Source of the DNA: Lama glama
Lineage: Eukaryota
Length of the DNA: 64,000 nt
Direction of reading: 5' to 3'
Assembly (NCBI GenBank): GCA_028534125.1
Contig: CM052816.1
Coordinates: forward strand, 9,984,001-10,048,000
A program made the position numbers and the translations under genes. Each line of letters starts with the position of its first letter. The stretch's first letter is position 1. Shown piece after piece: positions 8,820 to 59,315 of this stretch. Under the pieces are notes generated by a model, which worked only from the letters and a program-made list of their open reading frames with translations, ran no database searches and was not told where the DNA came from.

Positions 8820-11800
8820 TTTTTCTTTTCCTTTACTTGGATAAAATTCACCTTTTAAACTTAAATTTACCCTTTTTTTAAAAAAAAAACAAAGTTCTCT
8901 GAGTTGTACCAAACAAAAAAATTTGTGACTACAACCATACTTATAAAATATCCATCACCCTGAAAATTCCCTCATGCCCATTTAAAGTAAGCCCTTCCCT
9001 CCCAGATCACTTCTTGGCAACCAGAGATCTGTTTGCTGTCACTAGAGTTTTGCCATTTTCAGAAGGTCATATAAGTGAAATCAGAATTGTACAGTATACT
9101 GTGTCATGTATCAGCAGGTCATTCCTGTTACTGCTGTGTAGTCTTCCTTTCTGTGGATGCACTACAGTTGGTTTATCCATTCACCAGCTGAGGGACACTG
9201 GATTCCTTCCAGCTTGGGGCTATTACCAATAAAAGCACAATAAACACTCATATATGTTTTTTGTGTGAACATAAGTATTTATTTCACTTGAGTAGACCTA
9301 AGAGTGGTATTGCTGGGTCATATGATTATGTATGTATGTTACTTTATAAGAAACCCTGAAACGGTTTTCCCATTCTGCATTCCTACCAGCAAGCTTGGTT
9401 TGGTTTTTTCTTAATAGTGTCTTTTTGTGTCAGTGGATTAGGTTTCAGGTATTTTATCTCAGGAATCTGCCTAATACAAGGACAAAAAGACTTTCCTCTA
9501 TTTTTTTCCTAGAAATTTTAGAGTTTAAGTTTTTACATGTATGTCTGTGGCACATTTTGAATTAATTTTTATATATTGTTCTTGCTTTTTTCTTTCTTCT
9601 TCCTTTTTTTTTTTTTTTTTGCATATGGATGTTCAATTGTTTCAGCATCAAACACTGAAATGGCTGTTGTTTCTCCACTGGATGACCTTTGCATCTTTGT
9701 TAAAAATCAGTAGACCATATAAATATGAGTATATTTCTCAACTCTATTCTGTTCCACTGACATGCCCACCCTCTCTCCAATAAAATGCTATCTTAATTAC
9801 CGAGCTTTATAGAAGTCTTAAAATCAGCTAGAGTGACTGCTCAAATTTTGTTCTTTTTTCCCAAAATTGTTTTGGTTATTTTAGTTCTTTGCCTTTCCAT
9901 ATAAATTTTAAAATCACTTTGTCAGTTTCCAAACCAAATCACTTTGGGAAGAACTGACATCTTAGCAATATTCAGTATTCTGATACAAGAACATAGTAAG
10001 TCTCTTAATTTATTCTGATCATTTTTTAAAATTTGAAGTATAGTTGATTTACAATATTTTAGTTTCTGGTGTTTAGCACAGGGATTCAGTTATATGTATA
10101 TATATTCCTTTTTCATATTATTTTTCATTATAGATTATTACAAGCTATTAAATATAGTTCCCTGTGCTATACAGTAGGACCTTGTTGTTTCTCTTGGTCA
10201 TTTTTTTATTTCTTGCAACAAAAGTGTATAGTTATCAGCATGTAAAATATGCACATATTTTGTTAGATTTATACCTTAAGTATTTTATGGTTTTTGGAAC
10301 TACTGGAAATGATCTATTTTAATTTCAATTTCTATTTGTTTTTTGCAAGCACAAAAACATGCAATTGATTTTTGTATCTTAGTCTTGTGTCCAGTAACTT
10401 TGTCAATTCTCGTAGCATTTTTGTAGATTATTTAGGATTTCCTACATAGACAGTCATGTATTCTATAAATAGAAACTATTTGCTTTCTTCCTTTCCCATC
10501 AGTATGCCTTTTAACTTTCTTTCTGTACTGCAATGGTAAGTACCTCCAGTGCAATATCAACAAGTAATGGCAGAGGATATCTGTGTTTTGCTCCTGATCT
10601 TGGGGGAAATTATTCATCTTTCAACATTACACATGAAGTTAGCTGTGGATGTTTCATAGACATTCTTTATCGAGCTGAGGAATTTCCTTTTCATTCCTGG
10701 TTTGTTGAGAGGTATACGTATATAATGAATATGAAATTCTGTTAAATTATTTTTGTATCTATTGAGATGATTGTATGGTTTCTTTTTTTAATCTAGCCAT
10801 ATGATAAATTGCATTTATTGATTTTCAAAGTGCACTCGAGTTACAAGCCTCACTTACTTGATTTGCTAGGACTTTCCTTGGGGTTTTTATGTTTATGTTT
10901 CTGAGGGATATTGATCTGCAATTTTCTTGCCCTGTAGTTTCTTTTTCTGAGTTTGGTAGCAGGGCAACGTAGATCCTATATAATGGGAGGGTCAATAAGC
11001 AGTGAAAGATGCTCAGTAGCATGAGCTATTAAGGAAATACAAATCAAAACCAAAATTAGATACTCCTTCACACCTACAAGAATAGCTAGAATCAAAAAGA
11101 CATAATGACAAGGGTTGGTTATGATATGGAGAAACTGGAACCCTCATACAGTGCTAGTGAGAATGTAAAATAGTGTAGCTGTTTTGGAAGAGTCTGGCAG
11201 TTCTTCAAAAGATTAAACATAGAGTTATCATATGACCCAGAAATTCTACTACTACCTATATATCTACAAATGAGAAATAAAAACATACATCCATTTAAGC
11301 ACTTGTACAAGAATATTCATAGCAGCATTATCCATCGTAGCCAAACAGTGGGTACAACCCATATTTCCATCAACTAATGAATGGATAAATAAAACTCAGT
11401 ATATCCATACATTAGAATATGATTTGGTAGTAAAAATGAATGAAGTGTGATACATGCTATAACACGAATGAACCTTGAAAACATTATGCTAAGTGAAAGA
11501 AGGTGGGGACCAAAGGCCACATCTTGTATGATTATATTTAGATGACATGTCCATTACAGGCAAATCTATGGAGATCAAAAGCAGATTAGTGACTGTCTAG
11601 GGCTAGAGAGGGAAGGATTGGCTACTAATAGGTGTAGTTTTACCTGTGGGGCAATGAAAAAGCTATAAAACTGATTATGACAACTCCATGAATACACTAT
11701 AAAAGACTGAACTGTGCACCTCAAATGGTTGAATTGGATGGTATATGAATTACACCTCAACAAAGCTCTTAAAACAATTATTTGGGAACTGTACTCTCCT

Positions 11801-13330
11801 CTTCTACATTCTGAATAAGTCTTCTGGAGATCCATGATTATTTGTTCCCTGAATGTTTGATAGAATTTACTAGTGAAATGATCTCATCCTGGAGTTTCTG
11901 CTATTGAAAAGTTTTAAACTATGAATTTCATTCTTTAATAGATATGGAACTACTCAAATTGGCTATTTCTTCTTGAATGACCTTCTGCAGTTTGTGTCCA
12001 GGAATGTGTCCATCTCATCTATGTTATCATACCTATGGGCATAGAGTTATTCATGTTATTTCTTACTATTTTTTAATAACTGTAGGGTCTATAATGATAC
12101 CCCTCTCCAATCCTGATATTGATAATTGTGTCTAATTTCTCTCCCTCTCTGATTGGCAAATGTGTCTAGATGCTCATCAATTTTATTTTTCAAAGGGCTA
12201 GGTTTTGTTTTTATTGATTTTTCTCTGTTCTCAACTTAATTGATTCATGTTCTTGTTATTATTGTTATTCCTTCTGATTGATTTCGACTTGCTCTTTTTC
12301 TAGTTTAAGAAGCTGAAGTCATTTGATTTTCTTCTCTTTTAATACAAGTATTTAATGCTGTAAGTTCACTGCTAAGCACTGCTTTAGCTGCTCCCACAAA
12401 TTTTCATATATTTATTTCTATACAATTCAAAATGTTTTAGTATCTCCTGGGACACCCTCTTTGACCCACAGATTACTTAAAACTTTTAAAATTTAATTTC
12501 TAAATATTTAGGGACTTTTGCCATATGTGATTATTTGATTTCTAGTTTGATTCCACTACAGTAAAAATATGTACTTTATTTTAATTCTTTTAAATGTGTT
12601 AAGGCTTATTTAATGACCCAGTAAAGTCTATCTTGAATAATGTTTCCCTTGCAAACAAAAAAAATGTGTATTCCACTGTCTGGGGTGGCATATTTTATAA
12701 TGTAATTTAGTTCAATTTGATTATAGTGGTATTCAAGTTTTCTGCATCCTTCTTGTTTCTATCTCCTTGTTCTATTCACCACTGAAAGACTAGTTTTGAA
12801 GCCTTCATCTATAGTTGTGTATTTCTTTTTTTTTCTGTTAGTTTTTGCTATATAGATTTTGAGGCTTAATTGTTAGTTGCTTACACATCCAGGATTGTTG
12901 TATCTTCTTAATGAATTGATTCCTTTATGATTATGCAATGACTGTTTCTGGTAATATTCCTTGTTGTGAATACATTTTCTGATATAACATAACCATTCCA
13001 GGTTTCTTTTGATTAGTGTTTGATGATATATATTTTTACATTCACTTATTCTCATCGGTCTTTACATTTAAAGTAAGTTTCTATATATACTATAGTCTGA
13101 CAGTCTCTCTATTATTTTTGATGGGTTTATATTGTTTACATTTAATATAGTTATTAATAGGGTTGTGTTAAAATCTACAGTATTGTTAGATGTTTTCTTT
13201 TTATTTGTTATTCTTTTTTTCCCCTTCCTTTTTGCCTGCTTTTGGATTAAATTAGTATTTTTTACGGATCTATTTTATCTTCATTGTTGACACAATAGAT
13301 GAACCTCCTTTAATTACAGTTTTTCTTCAA
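8820..13330 (-). mobile_element. Old L1M element with nested L1 3' fragments (~10020-10190 minus; ~10990-11780 plus)
   Basis: Continuous antisense L1 3'UTR/ORF2 motifs; the nested plus-strand piece has 'aaacattatgctaagtgaaagaag' and ends 'cacctcaacaaagct'. Confidence 0.85.
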
Positions 13331-23773: not shown

Positions 23774-24037
<264 letters not shown>

Positions 24038-27386: not shown

Positions 27387-27886
27387 NNNNNNNNNNNNNN
27401 NNNNNNNNNNNNNNNNNNNNNNNNNNNNNNNNNNNNNNNNNNNNNNNNNNNNNNNNNNNNNNNNNNNNNNNNNNNNNNNNNNNNNNNNNNNNNNNNNNNN
27501 NNNNNNNNNNNNNNNNNNNNNNNNNNNNNNNNNNNNNNNNNNNNNNNNNNNNNNNNNNNNNNNNNNNNNNNNNNNNNNNNNNNNNNNNNNNNNNNNNNNN
27601 NNNNNNNNNNNNNNNNNNNNNNNNNNNNNNNNNNNNNNNNNNNNNNNNNNNNNNNNNNNNNNNNNNNNNNNNNNNNNNNNNNNNNNNNNNNNNNNNNNNN
27701 NNNNNNNNNNNNNNNNNNNNNNNNNNNNNNNNNNNNNNNNNNNNNNNNNNNNNNNNNNNNNNNNNNNNNNNNNNNNNNNNNNNNNNNNNNNNNNNNNNNN
27801 NNNNNNNNNNNNNNNNNNNNNNNNNNNNNNNNNNNNNNNNNNNNNNNNNNNNNNNNNNNNNNNNNNNNNNNNNNNNNNNNNNNNNN
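27387..27886. other. Assembly gap (500 N)
   Basis: Run of N. Confidence 1.
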
Positions 27887-28739: not shown

Positions 28740-29765
28740 TTACAGAGGTCATATTGAACCTTCTCAAACTGTTCCAAAAGAGTCAAGAGGAGGGAATAGT
28801 CCCAAACTCATTCTATGATGCCACCATCACTGTGATATTAAAACCAGAAAAAGGCACTGCAAAAAAAAAAATGATAGGCCAATATCATTGATGAACATAG
28901 ATGCAAAAATCCTCAACAAAATATTAGCAAGCAGAATCCAACAACACATACAAAAGATTATAACCATGATCAAGTTAGGTTCATCCCAGGGACAGAAAGA
29001 TGGTTCGACATATACAAATCAATCAATGTGATACATCACATCAACAAAAGAAAGGACAAATACCATACAATTATCTCCATAGATGCAGAAAAAGCATTTG
29101 ATAAAATTTAACACCAATTTATGAGAAAAACTCTTACCAATATGGGTATAGAGGGAACATATCTCAACATAATAAAAGCTATTTACGACAAACTCACAGT
29201 CAGCATAATATTCAACAGTGAAAAAGTGTAAGCCTTCCCACTAAAATCTGGAACAAGACAAGGATGCCTACTCTCCCCAATTCTATTAACATAGGCTTGG
29301 AAGTCCTAGCCACAACAATCAGGCAACAAAAAGAAATAAAAGGGATCCAAATTGGAAGAGAACAGTTGAAATTGTCACTATATGGGGATGATCTAATACT
29401 ATGTATAGAAAACCCTAAAAGCGCCACACAAAAACTACTAGAGCTGATAAAAGAATTCAGCAAGGTAGCAGGATACAAGATTAACATACAAAAATCAGTT
29501 GCATTTCTTTACACTAACATAAATTAGCAGGAAAAGAAAGTAAATAAACAATCTCTTTTAAAATTGCATCCAAAGCAATAAAATACTTAGGAATAAATCT
29601 GACCAAGGAGGTGAAAGACTCATACATAGAGAACTAAGAAACACTGATTAAGGAAATTACAGATGACTTAAAGAAATGGAAAGAGATCCCATGTTCTCAG
29701 ATTGGAAGAATCAGCATGGTTAATATCGCCATACTGCCCAAGGCCATCCACACATTTAATGCAAT
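28740..29765 (+). mobile_element. L1 ORF2 reverse-transcriptase fragment
   Basis: [42 protein letters not shown] (RT F/Y-x-DD region), with stops. Confidence 0.92.
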
Positions 29766-33239: not shown

Positions 33240-33849
33240 ATTCGGAGATTGTGCTACAGTTTCTCTACGAAACAAAACAAGGCAAAACAACAAGCAACAG
33301 GTTAGCAAATACCTTCTTTATGTAAGGGCCTGTGCTAGAGGAAAATAATGAATTGCAAAGTTAAAGGAGGGAGAGGAAGTCGGGGATTATTTTTTCTGTT
33401 TTTTTGTTTTACTTCTCAAATGATAAACCAGCTAAAAGAAACACTATCTCAAATGTAACAGAAGGTTGGAAACTATTATTCTGGATTTGGGGCTATGGAT
33501 AGGTGTGTGTGTATCTAGTGGAGAGGTACAGAGTGATGGCAGAGAAGTCACCCTAACTAATGTCCCTGGAAGCCCTGAAAGCCTCTAATTCTCAGAGATT
33601 TTTACAGCATCCCTATTTAGCAGTGTAGGGCCACACCTTCAGGATTTTTCTGTCATGCCAGAACGTAGATAAATAAACAGGCACTTCGGTGAACACAAAC
33701 TACATTAATATTCAATCCTCCCTCATTCCTTATTCCATAGGTGCCAAATGCAGGATTTACAAGATAAGGCCATCAAAAATAGTAGAAAGCATTTAGAAAG
33801 GCTAGAGCTGTTTTCCAATTCCACATATAAGCTTCAAAGTCACTGCTCT

Positions 33850-36800: not shown

Positions 36801-38360
36801 AAATCATCAAATCTAAAACTATTTGATCTAAATGAAAATAAAAACACAACTTATCAAAAACGTGTGTGATGCAGCAAAACAGTGCTTAGAAAGAGATACA
36901 GAGCATTGAATGCACACATTAAAAAGAAGAAAGTTTTAAAATCAATAACCTGAATTTCTGCCTTAGGGAACTAGATAAAAAGAGCAAATTAAATGGAAAG
37001 TAAGCAGAAAAAAAGAAATAACAATTAGAACAGAAATTGAAAAAAGGAAGTCAATAGAGAAAAATCAATAAAACCAAGAACCGTTTCTTTGAAAAGATCA
37101 ATAAAATTGATAAGCCTCTATACAGCCTAACTAAGGGGGAAAAAAGAGCAAAGACACAAATTACAAACATGAGAAATAAATGTGGGGGCAGCACACAAGA
37201 TAGGCCAATATAGGAATACTATAAATAACTCTATACCCACAAATTTGATCACTTAAATGAAATAAATCACTTGTTTGAAAGCCACAATCTGCCAAAACTC
37301 ACACAAGGAGAAATAGATGACCTGAATAGGCCTATATCTACTAAAGAAACTGAATCAATAATTAATAACCTTCCGAAACAAAAAACATCAGGCCCAGAAA
37401 GTTTCCCTGGTGAATTATACCAAACAGTTAAGGAAGAAATGATAACAATTCTCCACAATCTCTTTCAGAGGATAGAAACTGAGGGGATACTTTCTAACTC
37501 ATTCTATGAGGCAAATATTACCCTAATACCAAAATTAGACAAAAATATTAAGGCAAAGAATACTACAGACCAATAGCTCTTTTGATCATACATGTGAAAA
37601 TCTTCAATAAAAGGTTAGCAAATCAAATCCAAAAAAAAAAAAAGTGTAAAAAGAATTATACAGCATGATCAAGCAAGATTTATCCCAGGTATCCAAAGCT
37701 GGTTCATCATTTGAAAATCCATTATTGTAATTCACCACATGATGGCAATTTCTCAAAAAACTAAAAATAGAACTACCATATGATCCAGCAATTCTACTTC
37801 TTGGTATTTATCTAAAAGAATCAAAATCAGGGTCTTAGCTATATTAGCTCTGCCATGCTCACTGCAGCACTATTCACAATGGCCAAGATGTGGAAACAAT
37901 CTAAATATTTACCAACAGATGAGCGGATTTTTAAAATGTGGTATTTAAATACAATGGAATATTACTCAGCCCTAAAAAGGGAAGGAAATACTACAATATA
38001 TGATAATGTGTATGAACCTTAAGGACATTATGCTAAGTGAAATAAACCAGTCACAGAAGAACAAATACTTTATGATTCCACTCACATGAGCTATCTAAAA
38101 TAATCATACTCTTAGAAGCAAAGAATAGAAAGTGGTTTCCAGGGGCTGGAAAAAGGGGGAAATGGGGAACTGCTAATCAGTGGATATAAAATTTCAGTTA
38201 TGCAAGTGAATAAGTTCTAGAGATATGCTGAACAATACTGTGCCTACAGATAACAGTACTGTATTGAACACTTAAAAACCTGTTAGGAGAGTAGATCTCA
38301 TGTTAAGTGTTCTTACTACAATAAGAAAAAAAATTTCTAATTTTTTAAATAAAAAAAAGA
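33850..38360 (+). mobile_element. Long degraded L1M (5'UTR, ORF1, ORF2 endonuclease/linker), joined at ~37742 to an L1 3' end with poly(A)
   Basis: ORF2 peptides TIIAGDFNIPLLEMDRSSRQKI, FSDHDGVKLE, LPKQKTSGPESFPGELYQ; 3'UTR and A-tail at ~38325-38358. Confidence 0.92.
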
Positions 38361-39159
38361 TGTATGATCCCTTAGATGTGTAATCATGGTCATTTGTGAT
38401 GATGTAATGCAAAAAGCTTTGTACAATATAGATTATTCCAACCTGTTGCTAACAGCAATGCGCCAGAATCACATTCATTATTTATAGTCATATGTTTACA
38501 TTCAATATTTAAATTCAGATTTATGTTCAACTTTTTCCTTCAATGGTATCCTTTCCGATCTCTTCTAATTTTAACACTTATCCTTCAATCTTCCCACAAA
38601 GTTACCCATCCCATCTTTGGGGAGGTATTCAGTGCTGACTTTCTGCACCCAGGGAAGGTCCCTAGATGTTCCTACGATGACAATAAGTGAGCCATTCCAA
38701 CCGCACCAAGACCAGAGGGAAGCTCTCTGGGCTTCAGTGTTTTTACCTACCCAAGTGTCCCATGAGGATGATCTTTCCAAATACTAACATTACATCCTTA
38801 TAATGTCAAACTATTTTAAACCATAATAATTCATATATTTGTATATTTTCTCATTGTCAAATTACCTTCATTAAGCTAAACTTATTTAAGCTATAAAAAT
38901 TTATATTAATTTCATAGCTAAGGATCAGTGAAGTCAAGGTCATTTTACAACTCGGTCTGAAAATTAGGACTCAAAACTAACCCCTTGAAATCCAGTGACT
39001 TCATTGCCATCCGTGATGAAGCAGTCAACCCTTTCAGTTCCATAAGACATATTCTGATGACATCTTTCAGAATGCTGTTATTGCATGTTTCTGACGCCAA
39101 AGTAAAGGACAATAGAGAGGTTAAAGATGCCCTCTACCAAGTACTCCATGCAGTAATAG

Positions 39160-39689
39160 CTGAAAGGCGTCACCTATTAATCACTTCAACCAGTACGACC
39201 CATGGAATGAAATGCAGCAGAGTTATGAGCTGTGGAGGGAGATCATCATCCCACAGACCAAAAGCTGATCTCCAGCCGTTTTGTCGTTGGCTTCATTCTG
39301 CCTCTGACCATAACCACCTGCTGCTCATCCTTGTAGCCTTGAAACTAAGCCAAAACCAGCTGGCCAGGTCCAGCCCACCCTTCTGGGTCCTTGCAGCCAT
39401 AGTGAGTCTTCCTCTGCTGGTTGCCCTTGCAAGTGTCCCTGTCTGGACTTTGCCTCCTCTCAAGAGAACAGAGGGGACCTGTACCGGGTGGCCTTACTCA
39501 GAAGCCCTCTCACCTGGTCACCTGGTCTATGGCTTTTATCAACAGCTGCTTCACCCCAGGTCTCTATGTCTTCAGTGGGCATGATTTCAGGACCATTTGT
39601 TTCACCCCCTGCCAGCTGCCTGAGAACAAGTACTCTCTGAAGAGCCAGGCAGGCCTGAATCCCAGCTCCCAGACAACAATACTTCGTGA
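39160..39689 (+). pseudogene. Degraded intronless class A GPCR of the chemoattractant receptor group (FPR/CMKLR1/C3AR1/GPR32/GPR33-like); ECL2 to C-terminus
   Basis: Across frameshifts: GVTY*/HFNQYDPWNEMQQSYELWREIIIP (ECL2); LISSRFVVGFILPLTITTCC (TM5, 39265-39324); ILVALKLSQNQLARSSPPFWVLAAIV (ICL3/TM6); VFLCWLPLQVSL (CWxP, 39406-39441); PLTWSMAFINSCFTPGLYVFSGHDF (TM7); QDHLFHPLPAA*EQVLSEE (helix 8). Confidence 0.85.
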
Positions 39690-40786
39690 CATGACCCAGT
39701 TTCCCAGTCCAGCTGTTCACAACTCATTCCATCTTCTTAAATAGGTCTACAGAAATCCAAAATCAAACAGAATTTTACAGAATAAATCACACCTTATAAA
39801 TGGGCTCCAGTCCTGGACTGTGTTTCAGAACTAGAACTTGAGGTGCCTGGGAGGCAGGAGCAAGAAACTAGACTCATTTATAAAAGGAAGACACATTGAA
39901 CATGTCGAGAATAATGTACATGGATAAACAATAATCCCAAGGTTAGAGCCTATGCCAGGATTGATTAAGTCTTAAAGGATAAAGGTTTGCAATACATGAT
40001 TTCAGAGACTAAGGAGAAGAGTTCCTGGTGCAAATTAAATAGACTAACTAGCAGATCATGACAGCTGTTTCCAGTTTATTCCCAATTCAGAGTTAACTTA
40101 TTGCTAATAAAAACCAGGAAAGACTATCAGGAGCCCTTGACTAGATAAAGGACATTTTTCAGAGGGCAACAGGAGATCTGCTACAGGCAACACCCCTAAC
40201 AACAACTAAAAGAGGGTGGCGCTTGGAATGATGTTGTTACAAAAGAGAAAAGCAAAATTATGTTCAAAGGTTTTTTCCACAGAAAATCGCTTTTAAGGAA
40301 ATCAGTGATAACCAGTTGCATAGGCAATCTTGGACACAATTCAGACACTTATGTTACAATCTAGATAAATGCTTTGAGTGTTTGTAATTCAAAGTTGCAG
40401 AGACAGAACCAAATCCTGAAGAACTAGAACTTGGAAATGGAGCACAGCCAGCTGTCTATGCTAGGACGGGAATCTGCATAAGTGGCCCCCCGGGGTGGGA
40501 AGACGAGGAACACTGGTAATGTCTGGGGAAGTCTTCATGGAGAGTGGGCACTGAGGCTGGGCCTAGAGGAATGGGCCCAACCTAGGAATTACAAGTGGGT
40601 GAGGGCAGGTGGTATGGCAGGAAGAAGCCAAGGAAGGGAGAGAAAATTCCAGCAACACTATCTCAATAAGCTTCCATGGAAACATCACCAGAAACTCAGG
40701 TCCTAGTGAGGTCCTACATTCTGTTCAATTTGTGCCAGAAACACCTGAACAACTAAAATAATGGTATTTGGTAACCAGAACACTAG

Positions 40787-42699: not shown

Positions 42700-43410
42700 T
42701 TGTGGCAATACACATAAAACATAAAATTTACCATTTTAACCGTTTTTAAGTACACGGTTCAGTGGCATTAAGTCCCCACACACTGCTGTGTAACCATCAT
42801 CACCATCCATCTCCAGAACTTTTTCATTTTCCCAAATTAACAATTTGTACCCGTACAAGTTGTTATTACTCCCCAACTCCTCCTCCTCCCCAGCCCCTAG
42901 CAACCACCATTCTTTCTATGTCTTATGAATTCGACTACGCTAGGTTCACACAGATGGAATCATACAACATTTGTCCTTTTGTGACTGGTTTAGTTCACTT
43001 ACACAGTGTCATCGAGGATCATCATGTTTCAGCATATGTCAGAATGTCCTTCCTTGCTAAGGCTGAATGATATTCTGATGAACGTATATACTACCTTTTG
43101 CTGATTCATTTGTTTTTCAATGGACTTTAGGTTGTTTTCCTCTTTTTTGCTATTGTGAATGCTGCTATGATTCACAATACAAATATTATATTGGGTGTAC
43201 AAATATCTGTGAGTCCCTGCCTTCAATTCTTTTGGGCATATACCCATAAGAGGGATTGCTATATCATCTAGCAATTCTATTTTTAATTTTTTTGAGGAGC
43301 CTTCATATAGTTTTCCACAGAGTCTGCACCATTTTACATTCCCATTAGCAACAAGCAAGGATACTAATTTTTCCACATCCTGCCAACATTTGTTATTTCC
43401 CACTTTTTTC
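42700..43410 (-). mobile_element. L1M 3' fragment
   Basis: Minus-strand ORF2 C-terminus NNKCWQDVEKL..ANGNVKWC and L1 3'UTR motifs. Confidence 0.85.
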
Positions 43411-46214: not shown

Positions 46215-47165
46215 ACTCAATACCAAAAACAAAACAAAACAAAACAAAACTCCCAAACAATCCAATTTAATAATGGGCAAAGGATCTGAATAGACAGATC
46301 CAAAAAGATATCCAAAGAGCCAACATGTGCATTAAAAGGGGCTCAACATTAATAATCATCAGGGAAATTCAAACAAAATCACAGTGAGATATGACCTCAT
46401 ACCTATTAGAATGGCTCTGATCACAAAGACAAAAGATAACAAGGTCGGTGAGGATGTGGAAATAAGGGAAGTCTTGTGAACTGCTCGTGGGAATGTAAAC
46501 TGGTGCAGACACTATGGAAAACAGTATGAAGCTTTCTGAAAAATCTAAACATAGAACCACCATATGATTCAGCAATATCACTTTTGGTATATATCCAAAG
46601 GAGATGAGGATAGAATCTTGAAGAGATATTTATACCCCCATATTTATTGCCATATCATTTACAATAGGTCAAGACATGGAAACAACCTAAAGGTCCATCA
46701 ATATTCAATGAATGGATAAAATATATATATTTTTTTTTATACACACACACACACACACACATATAGGAATAAATATTATTAAGCCATGAGAAAGAAGTAA
46801 ATTCTGTCATTTGTGACAACATGGATAGACCTTGAGGGCATTATGCTAAGTGAAATAAGCCAGAGAAACACAGTAAGACAAATATTGCACAGTATCATTC
46901 ATTTGTAGAACCTAAGAAAAAAAAATCAAACTCATAGAAACAGAGTGGAGAAGTGTGATGCCAGGGTTGGAGGGTGGGGGAAATATGGAGAGGTTAGTAA
47001 AAATGTGCAAACCTTCAGCTATAAGATGAATATAAAGTCTGAGGATCTAATGTAAAAGATGGTGACTATAGTTGATAACACTGTAAATATAATCAAAATC
47101 TGCTTAGAGAGTAGAACTTAAATGTTTTCAAGAAAGAAAGCAAGAAAGCAAAGAAAAGAAAGAAA

Positions 47166-47363: not shown

Positions 47364-47863
47364 NNNNNNNNNNNNNNNNNNNNNNNNNNNNNNNNNNNNN
47401 NNNNNNNNNNNNNNNNNNNNNNNNNNNNNNNNNNNNNNNNNNNNNNNNNNNNNNNNNNNNNNNNNNNNNNNNNNNNNNNNNNNNNNNNNNNNNNNNNNNN
47501 NNNNNNNNNNNNNNNNNNNNNNNNNNNNNNNNNNNNNNNNNNNNNNNNNNNNNNNNNNNNNNNNNNNNNNNNNNNNNNNNNNNNNNNNNNNNNNNNNNNN
47601 NNNNNNNNNNNNNNNNNNNNNNNNNNNNNNNNNNNNNNNNNNNNNNNNNNNNNNNNNNNNNNNNNNNNNNNNNNNNNNNNNNNNNNNNNNNNNNNNNNNN
47701 NNNNNNNNNNNNNNNNNNNNNNNNNNNNNNNNNNNNNNNNNNNNNNNNNNNNNNNNNNNNNNNNNNNNNNNNNNNNNNNNNNNNNNNNNNNNNNNNNNNN
47801 NNNNNNNNNNNNNNNNNNNNNNNNNNNNNNNNNNNNNNNNNNNNNNNNNNNNNNNNNNNNNNN
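47364..47863. other. Assembly gap (500 N)
   Basis: Run of N. Confidence 1.
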
Positions 47864-58837: not shown

Positions 58838-59315
58838 CTGGATAAAGAAGATGTGGTATATTTATACAATGGAATACTATTCAGCCATAAAAACCAACAA
58901 CATAACACCATTTGCAGCAACATGGATGTTCCTATAGAATGTGATTCTAAGTGAAGTAAGCCAGAAAGAGAAAGAAAAATACCATATGAGATGGCTCATA
59001 TTGGAATCAAAAAAAAAAAGAAAAGAACATAAATACAAACCAGAAACAGACTCATAGGTATAGAATACAAACTTGTAGTTGCCAAAGAGATGGGGGGTGG
59101 AAAGAGACAGACAGATTTCAAAATGTAGAATAGATAAACAAGATTATACTGTATAGCACAGGGAAATATATACAAGATCTTGTGGCAGCTCACAGTGGAA
59201 AAGAATGTGACAATGAATATACGTATTTTCATGTATAACTGAAAAATTGTGCTCTACACTGGAATTTGACACAACATTGTAAAATGACTATAATGCAATA
59301 AAAAAAAGTTAAAAA
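58838..59315 (+). mobile_element. Young 5'-truncated L1 with 14-bp TSD
   Basis: TSD aaaagtcataaagg at 58824-58837 and 59316-59329. Confidence 0.93.

Follow-up and report, generated by a model that had tools for sequence, protein, structure and literature searches.

This locus raises the question of what kind of gene left the receptor-like fragments that lie on the + strand of the window (the whole 64,000-nt stretch of DNA that was analysed), and whether that gene was a stray copy of a familiar receptor or belonged to a lineage of its own. Within 39160-39690 the latter half of a class A GPCR can be read: the end of TM4, ECL2, TM5, ICL3, TM6, ECL3, TM7, helix 8 and the tail follow one another collinearly, broken over at least 8 frame segments and carrying two in-frame stops (Table 1). 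A dead GPCR fragment is therefore a confirmed observation in this window. We put at about three in four the probability that it is the non-coding relic of a single-exon gene for a class A GPCR of the formyl peptide receptor (FPR) group, reduced to its C-terminal half and stemming from a therian lineage apart from that of FPR1/2/3. All receptor peptides quoted in a preliminary description of this DNA were found in place on the + strand, as were the closing TGA and the AATAAA hexamer that it had listed; the ECL3 and TM4-end segments, which it had missed, are recoverable too.

Table 1. Features of the receptor relic and its surroundings, in window coordinates
Feature	Position	Strand	Evidence
TM4 end and ECL2 start, LKGVTY*S, frame 1	39160..39183	+	frameshift-aware alignment to P0019 and P0080
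In-frame TAA stop	39178-39180	+	within KGVTY segment, frame 1
ECL2 FNQYDPWNEMQQSYELWREIIIPQT, frame 2	39185..39259	+	profile positions 176-204, E 1.2e-4
TM5 QKLISSRFVVGFILPLTITTCC, frame 1, TM5 proline retained	39259..39324	+	profile positions 201-228, E 4.3e-5
ICL3 and TM6 start LVALKLSQNQLARSSPPFWVLAAIV, frame 0	39324..39405	+	profile positions 227-253, E 2e-3
TM6 VFLCWLPLQVSL, frame 1, CWxP retained (FLCWLP)	39406..39440	+	within piece matching profile at E 1.2e-12
ECL3 LDFASSQENRGDLYRVALLRSPLT, frame 2	39440..39514	+	aligns to primate remnants' LDFTSPQEDKEDLSQMALLITPLA only after frame change
TM7 SMAFINSCFTPGLYVFSGHD, frame 1, NPxxY decayed to TPGLY	39514..39585	+	profile, PDB and guide alignment
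Helix 8 FQDHLFHPLPAA*EQVLSEEP, frame 0	39585..39650	+	matches relatives' F[WR]E[HR]LL[HR]SLPAALERALSEEP
In-frame TGA in helix 8	39621-39623	+	guide alignments
C-terminal tail GLNPSSQTTIL, frame 1	39652..39684	+	compare SLNPSSQTSPL (Prolemur P0019), SSLNPSS (Saguinus P0003)
TGA closing frame 0, candidate ancestral stop only	39687..39689	+	sequence
AATAAA hexamer, putative signal	39781..39786	+	sequence
C5orf46-type exon (context)	23813..24037	+	Pfam DUF4576, E 1.4e-26; motif scan

An FPR-like protein profile, run over every six-frame stop-to-stop piece of the window (3435 in all), identified four adjacent + strand pieces that match successive parts of the profile (176-204, 201-228, 227-253 and 256-315). 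The last of these, the TM6-TM7 piece, matches at E 1.2e-12, and the best value elsewhere in the window is 0.12. Frameshift-aware alignment of the window to 18 FPR-like and chemerin-receptor-like proteins gave scores of 203-398, with 141 against a C3a-receptor-like protein and 128 against CMKLR2; the shuffled maximum was 41-70 (10 shuffles each). Against the PDB, the first four hits of the TM6-TM7 piece are all FPR1 (E 1.5e-5 to 2.1e-5), with GPER1, FPR2, CMKLR1, C3aR and C5aR1 next in rank, and the best match of the TM5 piece alone is TM5 of FPR2 (E 0.12). Several searches with single pieces returned nothing: none of five single-frame window pieces, which are short, matches Pfam 7tm_1, a word-based search for homologues among longer proteins, queried with the TM6-TM7 piece, gave 11 candidates with none significant, and a 207-aa frame-0 piece had no PDB match. 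Relatives that align to the window do match 7tm_1 (P0020 at 4.5e-43, P0016 at 6.8e-35, P0013 at 2.2e-8). The profile scan and the shuffle controls place the GPCR match beyond chance, and similarity arising by accident in non-coding DNA, which has nothing in its favor but the failure of single pieces in Pfam, can be set aside in view of the 1.2e-12 match, three more matches collinear with it and alignment scores (203-398) that shuffled sequence never brought above 70. The same Pfam run on single-frame pieces yielded one irrelevant match, to ABCC10_N (E 0.039).

The damage to the reading frame is reproducible. Three independent guide proteins each return the identical frame pattern 1-2-1-0-1-2-1-0, and each finds both the TAA at 39178 and the TGA at 39621, so that at least seven frame changes and two stops fall within about 500 nt, lesions that mark a pseudogene. 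Of the microswitch motifs, CWxP is present, TPGLY stands in place of NPxxY, and the DRY region is missing. Judged by its sequence, the relic cannot make a receptor, because of the seven or more frame changes, the two stops, the TPGLY replacement and the undetectable TM1-TM4. The sequence is not a quirk of assembly, since 14 of the 24 listed sequencing runs contain 93-100% of its sampled words. A still-working gene, whose breaks would stem from sequencing errors, splicing or recoding, might draw on four RNA-labelled runs in which 30-42% of the words sampled from 38400-39800 occur, a weak indication made of word counts only; the density of lesions, the decayed NPxxY, the missing TM1-TM4 and the 14 concordant runs make such a gene extremely improbable. 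The window element has no coding function, and the dead chemoattractant-family GPCR of the preliminary description is upheld by the profile match, the collinear pieces and these lesions.

Only the C-terminal half detectably survives. The recovered part runs from the end of TM4 to TM7 and helix 8, short of an ordered set of seven TM helices, as is expected in a truncated relic. Upstream of the remnant, six protein guides searched for TM1-TM4 scored at z -1.1 to 0.8 relative to 40 shuffles each, and the profile reached 28.7, a score equalled by 1 of 60 shuffles, with controls of 28.3 on the reverse strand and 29.6 on unrelated DNA. Over the whole window, tblastn for the N-terminal half (E <= 30) gave chance-level matches only, and a scan of 246 tiles produced nothing outstanding: the best tile, at 33441-33551 with a DRC-like AMDRCVCI*W, scored 37.6, and the opposite strand gave 37.0 and 35.9. 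A by-eye reading of TM1-TM4 at 38440-38780 (IIYS.., LLILTLILQ, THPIFG, LWASVFLPTQVS) is unsupported by guide or profile scores.

The closest relatives of the relic are themselves fragments. An exhaustive HMMER scan over 1.84 billion cluster representatives retrieved 12 proteins (E <= 1e-3), led by three short pieces: an unnamed one of 86 aa, one of 191 aa from fin whale and one of 171 aa from Saguinus. From ECL2 to tail, the window is nearest to predicted remnants in primates and fin whale, with 59-65% identity. They include Macaca fascicularis EGM_15516 (P0018), Plecturocebus P0024, Balaenoptera physalus KAB0404437.1 (P0002), Saguinus oedipus KAK2116706.1 (P0003) and Prolemur simus A0A8C9DMF2 (P0019), the last of which, unlike the window, retains DRC and NPxxY. 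The tail motif LNPSSQT is common to the window and the remnants, and the fin whale protein reads EGVTYY at the matching TM4/ECL2 spot. Their decay differs: in the primate copies P0003 (171 aa) and P0025 (217 aa), ECL2 to the C-terminus is one open frame, whereas the window requires seven frame changes, and at least one of these changes is absent from the whale reading.

Intact relatives occur in marsupials. Frameshift-aware scores are 347-398 for the primate remnants (59-65% identity), 276-326 for marsupial A2 genes (46-48%), the highest among intact proteins, and 203-217 for placental FPR1/2 (38-47%). The marsupial A2 proteins P0020 (Gracilinanus), P0080 (Trichosurus), P0081 (Dromiciops) and P0092 (Petaurus) differ from the window in being intact, at 360-393 aa, and share with its remnant the ECL2 motif and helix 8; P0020 has a complete 7tm_1 domain, and DRC, CWxP and NPxxY are retained in P0020, P0022 and P0028. 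An ECL2 [FY]D.WNE is common to monotreme, marsupial and primate relatives; this motif of the remnant is missing from the one placental FPR-cluster sequence inspected (P0071). For P0020 the best solved matches are FPR2 (6.9e-79) and FPR1 (2.6e-75), and the ESM Atlas places it only in generic FPR, chemerin-receptor and C3aR clusters. FPR1 and FPR2 (structures such as 7euo and 7wvv) are thus the best solved matches for both P0020 and the TM6-TM7 piece of the window, which makes FPRs the nearest among characterised receptors. Shared features are TM5 RF..GF..P, TM6 FLCW.P, TM7 NSC.NP.LYVF.G.DF and helix 8 SLP..LERAL.EE; the differences are that FPR1/FPR2 form a separate clade and that the gene here is dead.

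The phylogeny was taken from a careful IQ-TREE analysis of 41 rows, in which the window row, translated along a platypus guide, sits on a long branch (0.89) and covers 45% of the columns; a quick tree of 80 rows has the same topology. P0002 was omitted from both trees because its mixed-frame predicted protein would hide any lesions shared with the whale. In the careful tree the window and the primate remnants form one clade (100/98), with the window outside the primate group. This clade is sister to marsupial P0020/P0080/P0081/P0092 (97/95), and marsupial 'B' FPRs join placental FPR1/2 in a separate clade (98/96). A tree constrained to unite the remnants with placental FPR1/2 is worse by 20.6 lnL and is rejected (AU p 0.021). 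From this grouping and the rejected constraint, the relic reads as a pseudogene from an FPR-type lineage that is old and distinct, rather than as a scattered copy of FPR1-3. Both trees were built without GPR32, GPR33 and placental CMKLR1, so 'distinct lineage' applies relative to FPR1/2, the marsupial and monotreme FPR-like genes and the non-mammalian relatives; FPR3 lies outside the set. The constrained clade was chosen after the first tree had been inspected, though it corresponds to the outcome that the preliminary description had itself named as refuting, a tight nesting within a known receptor, which is not seen with respect to FPR1/2.

Two further parts of the preliminary description fared differently. 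Its suggestion that the gene is intact in other mammals is borne out as far as the tree goes, through the marsupial clade. Its proposal of an unknown kind of receptor does not hold: on sequence grounds the receptor kind is not new, as the remnant is nested in the mammalian clade to which FPR1/2 belong (99 in the quick tree, 100/100 in the careful one), and the label of the intact marsupial relatives at NCBI is 'N-formyl peptide receptor 2-like'. Overall, the interpretation it gave is partly supported.

An alternative to weigh against these trees is that a canonical FPR1/2/3 gene was copied to this place, by retroposition or as a segment, and that the copy has since decayed. FPR coding regions are single-exon, and a retrocopy would therefore look alike; with an intronless parent family, the loss of introns says nothing about processing. 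The AATAAA about 90 nt 3′ of the frame-0 stop would suit such a copy, but no poly-A tract was found after it. In the tree the remnants stay apart from placental FPR1/2, to which identity is 38-47% as against 59-65% to the primate remnants, and similar remnants are known in primates and whale, so any copying event would be older than the split between those two groups. We regard a dispersed copy as highly unlikely.

GPR32, an FPR-related orphan or resolvin receptor, provides a stronger alternative. Some placentals would still carry the gene under that name, and the relic would be what is left either of its parent locus or of a duplicate. With such an origin the relic would be neither 'unnamed' nor strictly unitary. 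GPR32 and marsupial A2 presumably share a stretch like F-N-x-D-N-E-T in ECL2 and PFNV in TM6, which serves as a lead only, whereas the helix 8 and tail of the remnants look more FPR-like than those of GPR32. The A2 gene and the other FPR-like genes also lie on different chromosome-scale contigs in Dromiciops and Trichosurus, against a human GPR32 that lies near the FPR cluster. No GPR32 is present among the homologues listed or the PDB matches. In the literature, GPR32 is reported to be rooted by monotreme and marsupial genes (PMC6504862), among which the marsupial A2 and monotreme genes analysed here may be counted; the supplement of that paper holds no GPR32 entry. A GPR32-lineage origin appears unlikely, though it deserves attention.

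A similar fate has befallen GPR33, a chemoattractant-type receptor that is a pseudogene in human and intact in dog and rodents; both cases are lineage-specific deaths of a chemoattractant-family GPCR (PMC2651185). GPR33 differs in belonging to another branch, near CMKLR1, and stands outside the trees built here.

As to genomic context, a C5orf46-type exon with a DUF4576 match lies about 15 kb upstream of the relic on the same strand. The DNA is not human: this exon departs from the human C5orf46 sequence, a count of Alu core motifs gave 0, and the remnant branches outside the primates. The preliminary description had placed the relic between C5orf46 and SPINK1; the C5orf46 side of this interval stands, and motif scans of the window found no SPINK1 (Kazal), SCGB3A2 or last C5orf46 exon. 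Such absences are weak evidence. From that earlier placement, we take the locus to be in a chromosomal region other than the FPR cluster. No paper found in a literature search describes an FPR-like pseudogene at the C5orf46 locus.

Returning to the reading of the relic as a separate FPR-type lineage, the gene would belong to a therian line distinct from the ancestor of FPR1/2/3, one that was probably kept as intact 360-393 aa genes in four marsupial species and reduced to remnants in the window's genome, primates and fin whale. By analogy with its relatives, the ancestral product would have been a Gi-coupled leukocyte chemoattractant receptor. Homology, lesions and clade placement are demonstrated, whereas this function, orthology by position and the timing of the loss are inferred; for orthology by position, the one hint is the separate contig of the A2 gene in Dromiciops and Trichosurus.

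A wider reading, in which an extra ancestral mammalian FPR-type gene beside C5orf46, away from the FPR cluster, was kept in marsupials and lost several times independently in placentals, is offered tentatively, as it is possible but on present evidence doubtful. On this reading, the open primate frame and a whale copy that lacks at least one window lesion suggest that there may be placentals in which the gene is functional to this day or has only lately died. Candidates would be strepsirrhine primates, given the Prolemur prediction with DRC and NPxxY. The ligand would then be some innate-immune cue that nobody has studied. FPRs are central pattern-recognition chemoattractant receptors, and mammalian repertoires differ greatly, which complicates animal models. 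A separate, old FPR-type lineage, living on in marsupials but lost in placentals, would give that history a new branch, single out marsupial orphan receptors as worth deorphanising, and supply a series of independent, datable gene losses in which the discarding of immune receptors could be followed. The relic itself is a moderately interesting case of gene loss, and it would explain the odd short 'FPR2' and 'hypothetical' proteins that gene predictors produce for primates and whales at what is probably the same locus.

Read with frame changes, positions 39160-39690 on the forward strand translate and align as the C-terminal half of a class A GPCR. Segments were mapped with our own frameshift-aware protein-to-DNA aligner, and the pattern was identical for all three guide proteins, from Prolemur (P0019), a 217-aa primate ORF (P0025) and Trichosurus (P0080). 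The peptides quoted in the preliminary description were all recovered at their positions on the + strand, as were its TGA at 39687-39689 and AATAAA at 39781-39786. The frameshift-aware alignment counts at least seven frame changes and two in-frame stops. In TM6 the CWxP motif is intact (FLCWLP), and in TM7 NPxxY has become TPGLY. The element is a relic, and no receptor can be encoded from it in this Lama glama genome.

Segments of the FPR-type receptor remnant in window coordinates
Segment	Positions	Strand	Frame	Remark
End of TM4	39160-39183	+	1	TAA at 39178
ECL2	39185-39259	+	2	
TM5	39259-39324	+	1	
ICL3	39324-39405	+	0	
TM6	39406-39440	+	1	
ECL3	39440-39514	+	2	overlooked in the preliminary description
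TM7	39514-39585	+	1	
Helix 8	39585-39650	+	0	TGA at 39621
Tail	39652-39684	+	1	

The proposed GPCR identity fared differently by method. None of five single-frame pieces matched Pfam 7tm_1, whereas an FPR-like profile and PDB searches did find matches; a word-based homologue search of the remnant returned no match. Translated in six frames and cut at stops, the window gives 3435 pieces, all of which were scored with the profile, built from 10 FPR-like proteins. Four neighbouring + strand pieces matched profile positions 176-204, 201-228, 227-253 and 256-315 (E 1.2e-4, 4.3e-5, 2e-3 and 1.2e-12), and the next-best piece reached E 0.12. Against PDB, the TM6-TM7 piece alone matched FPR1 (E 1.5e-5), followed by GPER1, FPR2, CMKLR1, C3aR and C5aR1, while the top match of the TM5 piece was TM5 of FPR2, with E 0.12 by itself and FPR2 accounting for six of seven matches. 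Frameshift-aware scores against FPR-like and chemerin-receptor-like proteins were 203-398, compared with shuffled maxima of 41-70 (10 shuffles each).

When the 65-aa TM6-TM7 piece was run exhaustively with HMMER against 1.84 billion representatives, 12 proteins reached E <= 1e-3, the three best being short fragments: an 86-aa ORF found on 93 contigs, a 191-aa fin-whale 'hypothetical protein' and a 171-aa Saguinus 'hypothetical protein'. The cluster mate of the first is a 159-aa UniParc entry (P0013) in which TM6-TM7 directly follows the N-terminus and TM1, as a spliced transcript or one with an internal deletion would give. That of the Saguinus fragment, P0016, is a near full-length primate sequence of 322 aa; used as a query, it drew 2165 candidates, of which 57 reached E <= 1e-10. 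Identity to P0016 is 61-70% for the Macaca, Prolemur and Plecturocebus remnants, 43-47% for marsupial and monotreme 'N-formyl peptide receptor 2-like' proteins, about 40% for reptile 'chemerin-like receptor 1' and 35-40% for placental FPR1/FPR2. A profile search found 1478 proteins at E <= 1e-20 among 8000 scored, and the best 120 of the 1478 add marsupial, monotreme, sauropsid and amphibian members. A platypus prediction of 474-484 aa (P0017/P0004, UniRef100_F7C6P6) joins portions of two FPR-like genes that lie in tandem, its front matching entry P0022 and its back P0115; it looks like an artefact of annotation and might distort gene trees.

Two IQ-TREE analyses were made. The first (LG+C20+F+G4) held 79 of 183 proteins, picked by eye for every group, and the translated remnant, in which an X marks every break. 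The window fell with the primate remnants (99), and four marsupial genes, 360-393 aa long, formed their sister clade (94); 357-aa marsupial genes and placental FPR1/2 formed a separate clade (93). The more careful tree held 40 proteins and the window, translated with a platypus guide because bias towards primates was to be avoided. It joined the window to the primates (100/98), with the window outside the primate rows (92/81), and both to the A2 marsupial genes of Gracilinanus, Trichosurus, Dromiciops and Petaurus (97/95). The other marsupial genes (B) joined placental FPR1/2 (98/96), and the A2/remnant, B/FPR1/2 and monotreme clades stood in no resolved deep order. The whale protein (P0002, which mixes frames) and P0025 were excluded from the trees, and P0013 and the Plecturocebus protein P0024 entered the 80-row tree only. 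The remnants do not nest with placental FPR1/2: a tree constrained to unite them is worse by 20.6 log-likelihood units (AU p 0.021), for a group that was defined after the first tree had been seen and that coincides with the nesting named beforehand as refutation.

The A2 gene of Gracilinanus (P0020) carries a complete 7tm_1 domain (E 4.5e-43) and matches FPR2 (6.9e-79) and FPR1 (2.6e-75) ahead of CMKLR1 (1e-67) among solved structures. Marsupial FPR-like genes apparently occupy two loci on separate chromosome-scale contigs (Dromiciops P0028, P0081, P0088; Trichosurus P0080, P0083, P0087). In both species A2 is the lone-standing locus, a placement compatible with a separate locus of unspecified position.

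The remnant is a true pseudogene, probably of a separate, ancient FPR-type lineage whose marsupial relatives are intact; the trees set it apart from FPR1/2, from the other marsupial and monotreme FPR-like genes and from non-mammalian relatives. To this extent the earlier interpretation stands, but not as a new kind of receptor, since by homology the remnant is an FPR-family member. The main rival would tie it to the GPR32 lineage. PMC6504862 describes three marsupial sequences as likely orthologous to FPR1-3, and GPR32 as rooted by monotreme and marsupial genes; these may be the same genes as in our trees, which makes the GPR32 link the main rival, though an unlikely one. GPR32, GPR33 and placental CMKLR1 were all absent from the matches listed in our homologue searches. 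Comparable losses are documented in PMC2651185: rodents carry GPR32 as a pseudogene, dog lacks it, and human GPR33 is a pseudogene. Automated annotation has already issued proteins from the locus in primates and whale, and names the marsupial genes 'FPR2-like'; in full-text literature searches no description of an FPR-like pseudogene next to C5orf46 came up.

From its family, the ancestor would have been a Gi-coupled leukocyte chemoattractant receptor of FPR type. In the aligned set, the ECL2 motif [FY]D.WNE is shared by the primate remnant, the monotreme gene and both groups of marsupial genes, A2 and B. It is absent from P0071, the one placental FPR-cluster protein compared, which explains why the preliminary description could not match ECL2 to a known receptor. 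In primates, the ORFs P0003 (171 aa) and P0025 (217 aa) run from ECL2 to the C-terminus in a single frame, and the whale reading passes from ECL2 into TM5 without the break near 39259; the seven frame changes of the window in this stretch are therefore unshared with primates and postdate the split. The first hit may have fallen in the front half or promoter, or several placental lineages may each have lost the gene separately. Prolemur P0019 keeps DRC and NPxxY, and P0016 has DHC. Long open frames are retained in primate copies (P0013, P0025, P0003), and their length suggests that loss in primates may have been late.

TM1-TM4 were not found in the window. Upstream (38200-39190), six protein guides gave z of -1.1 to 0.8 against shuffles, and a clade profile scored 28.7, equalled by the reverse strand and unrelated DNA; across the whole window, relaxed tblastn and a 246-tile scan gave chance-level matches only. 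The front half would thus have been deleted, displaced or decayed past detection. The top tile, 33441-33551 (+), scored 37.6 (the opposite strand reaches 37.0). It holds a DRC-like stretch, AMDRCVCI*W...RSH, that weakly matches the end of TM3 in the FPR-like profile and may be a relocated fragment of the lost front half, or nothing.

A C5orf46-type coding exon lies on the same strand at 23813-24037 (Pfam DUF4576, E 1.4e-26); motif scans of the window found neither the first and last coding exons of C5orf46 nor Kazal (SPINK1 side) and SCGB3A2 signatures. Interspersed repeats fill 37013-38080, ending about 1.1 kb short of the remnant on its upstream side, with copies 64-69% identical at 11195-12273, 28790-29041, 42955-43292, 46533-46884 and 58848-58989. 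A frame at 37816-38022 reads ...MEYYSALKREGN..., which we take to resemble the end of L1 ORF2. Two runs of exactly 500 N occur at 27387-27886 and 47364-47863. A count of Alu core motifs in the window gave 0, which with the placement of the remnant outside the primate rows points to a placental source other than a primate. Words sampled from 38400-39800 were present at 93-100% in 14 DNA-type public runs and at 30-42% in four RNA-labelled runs.
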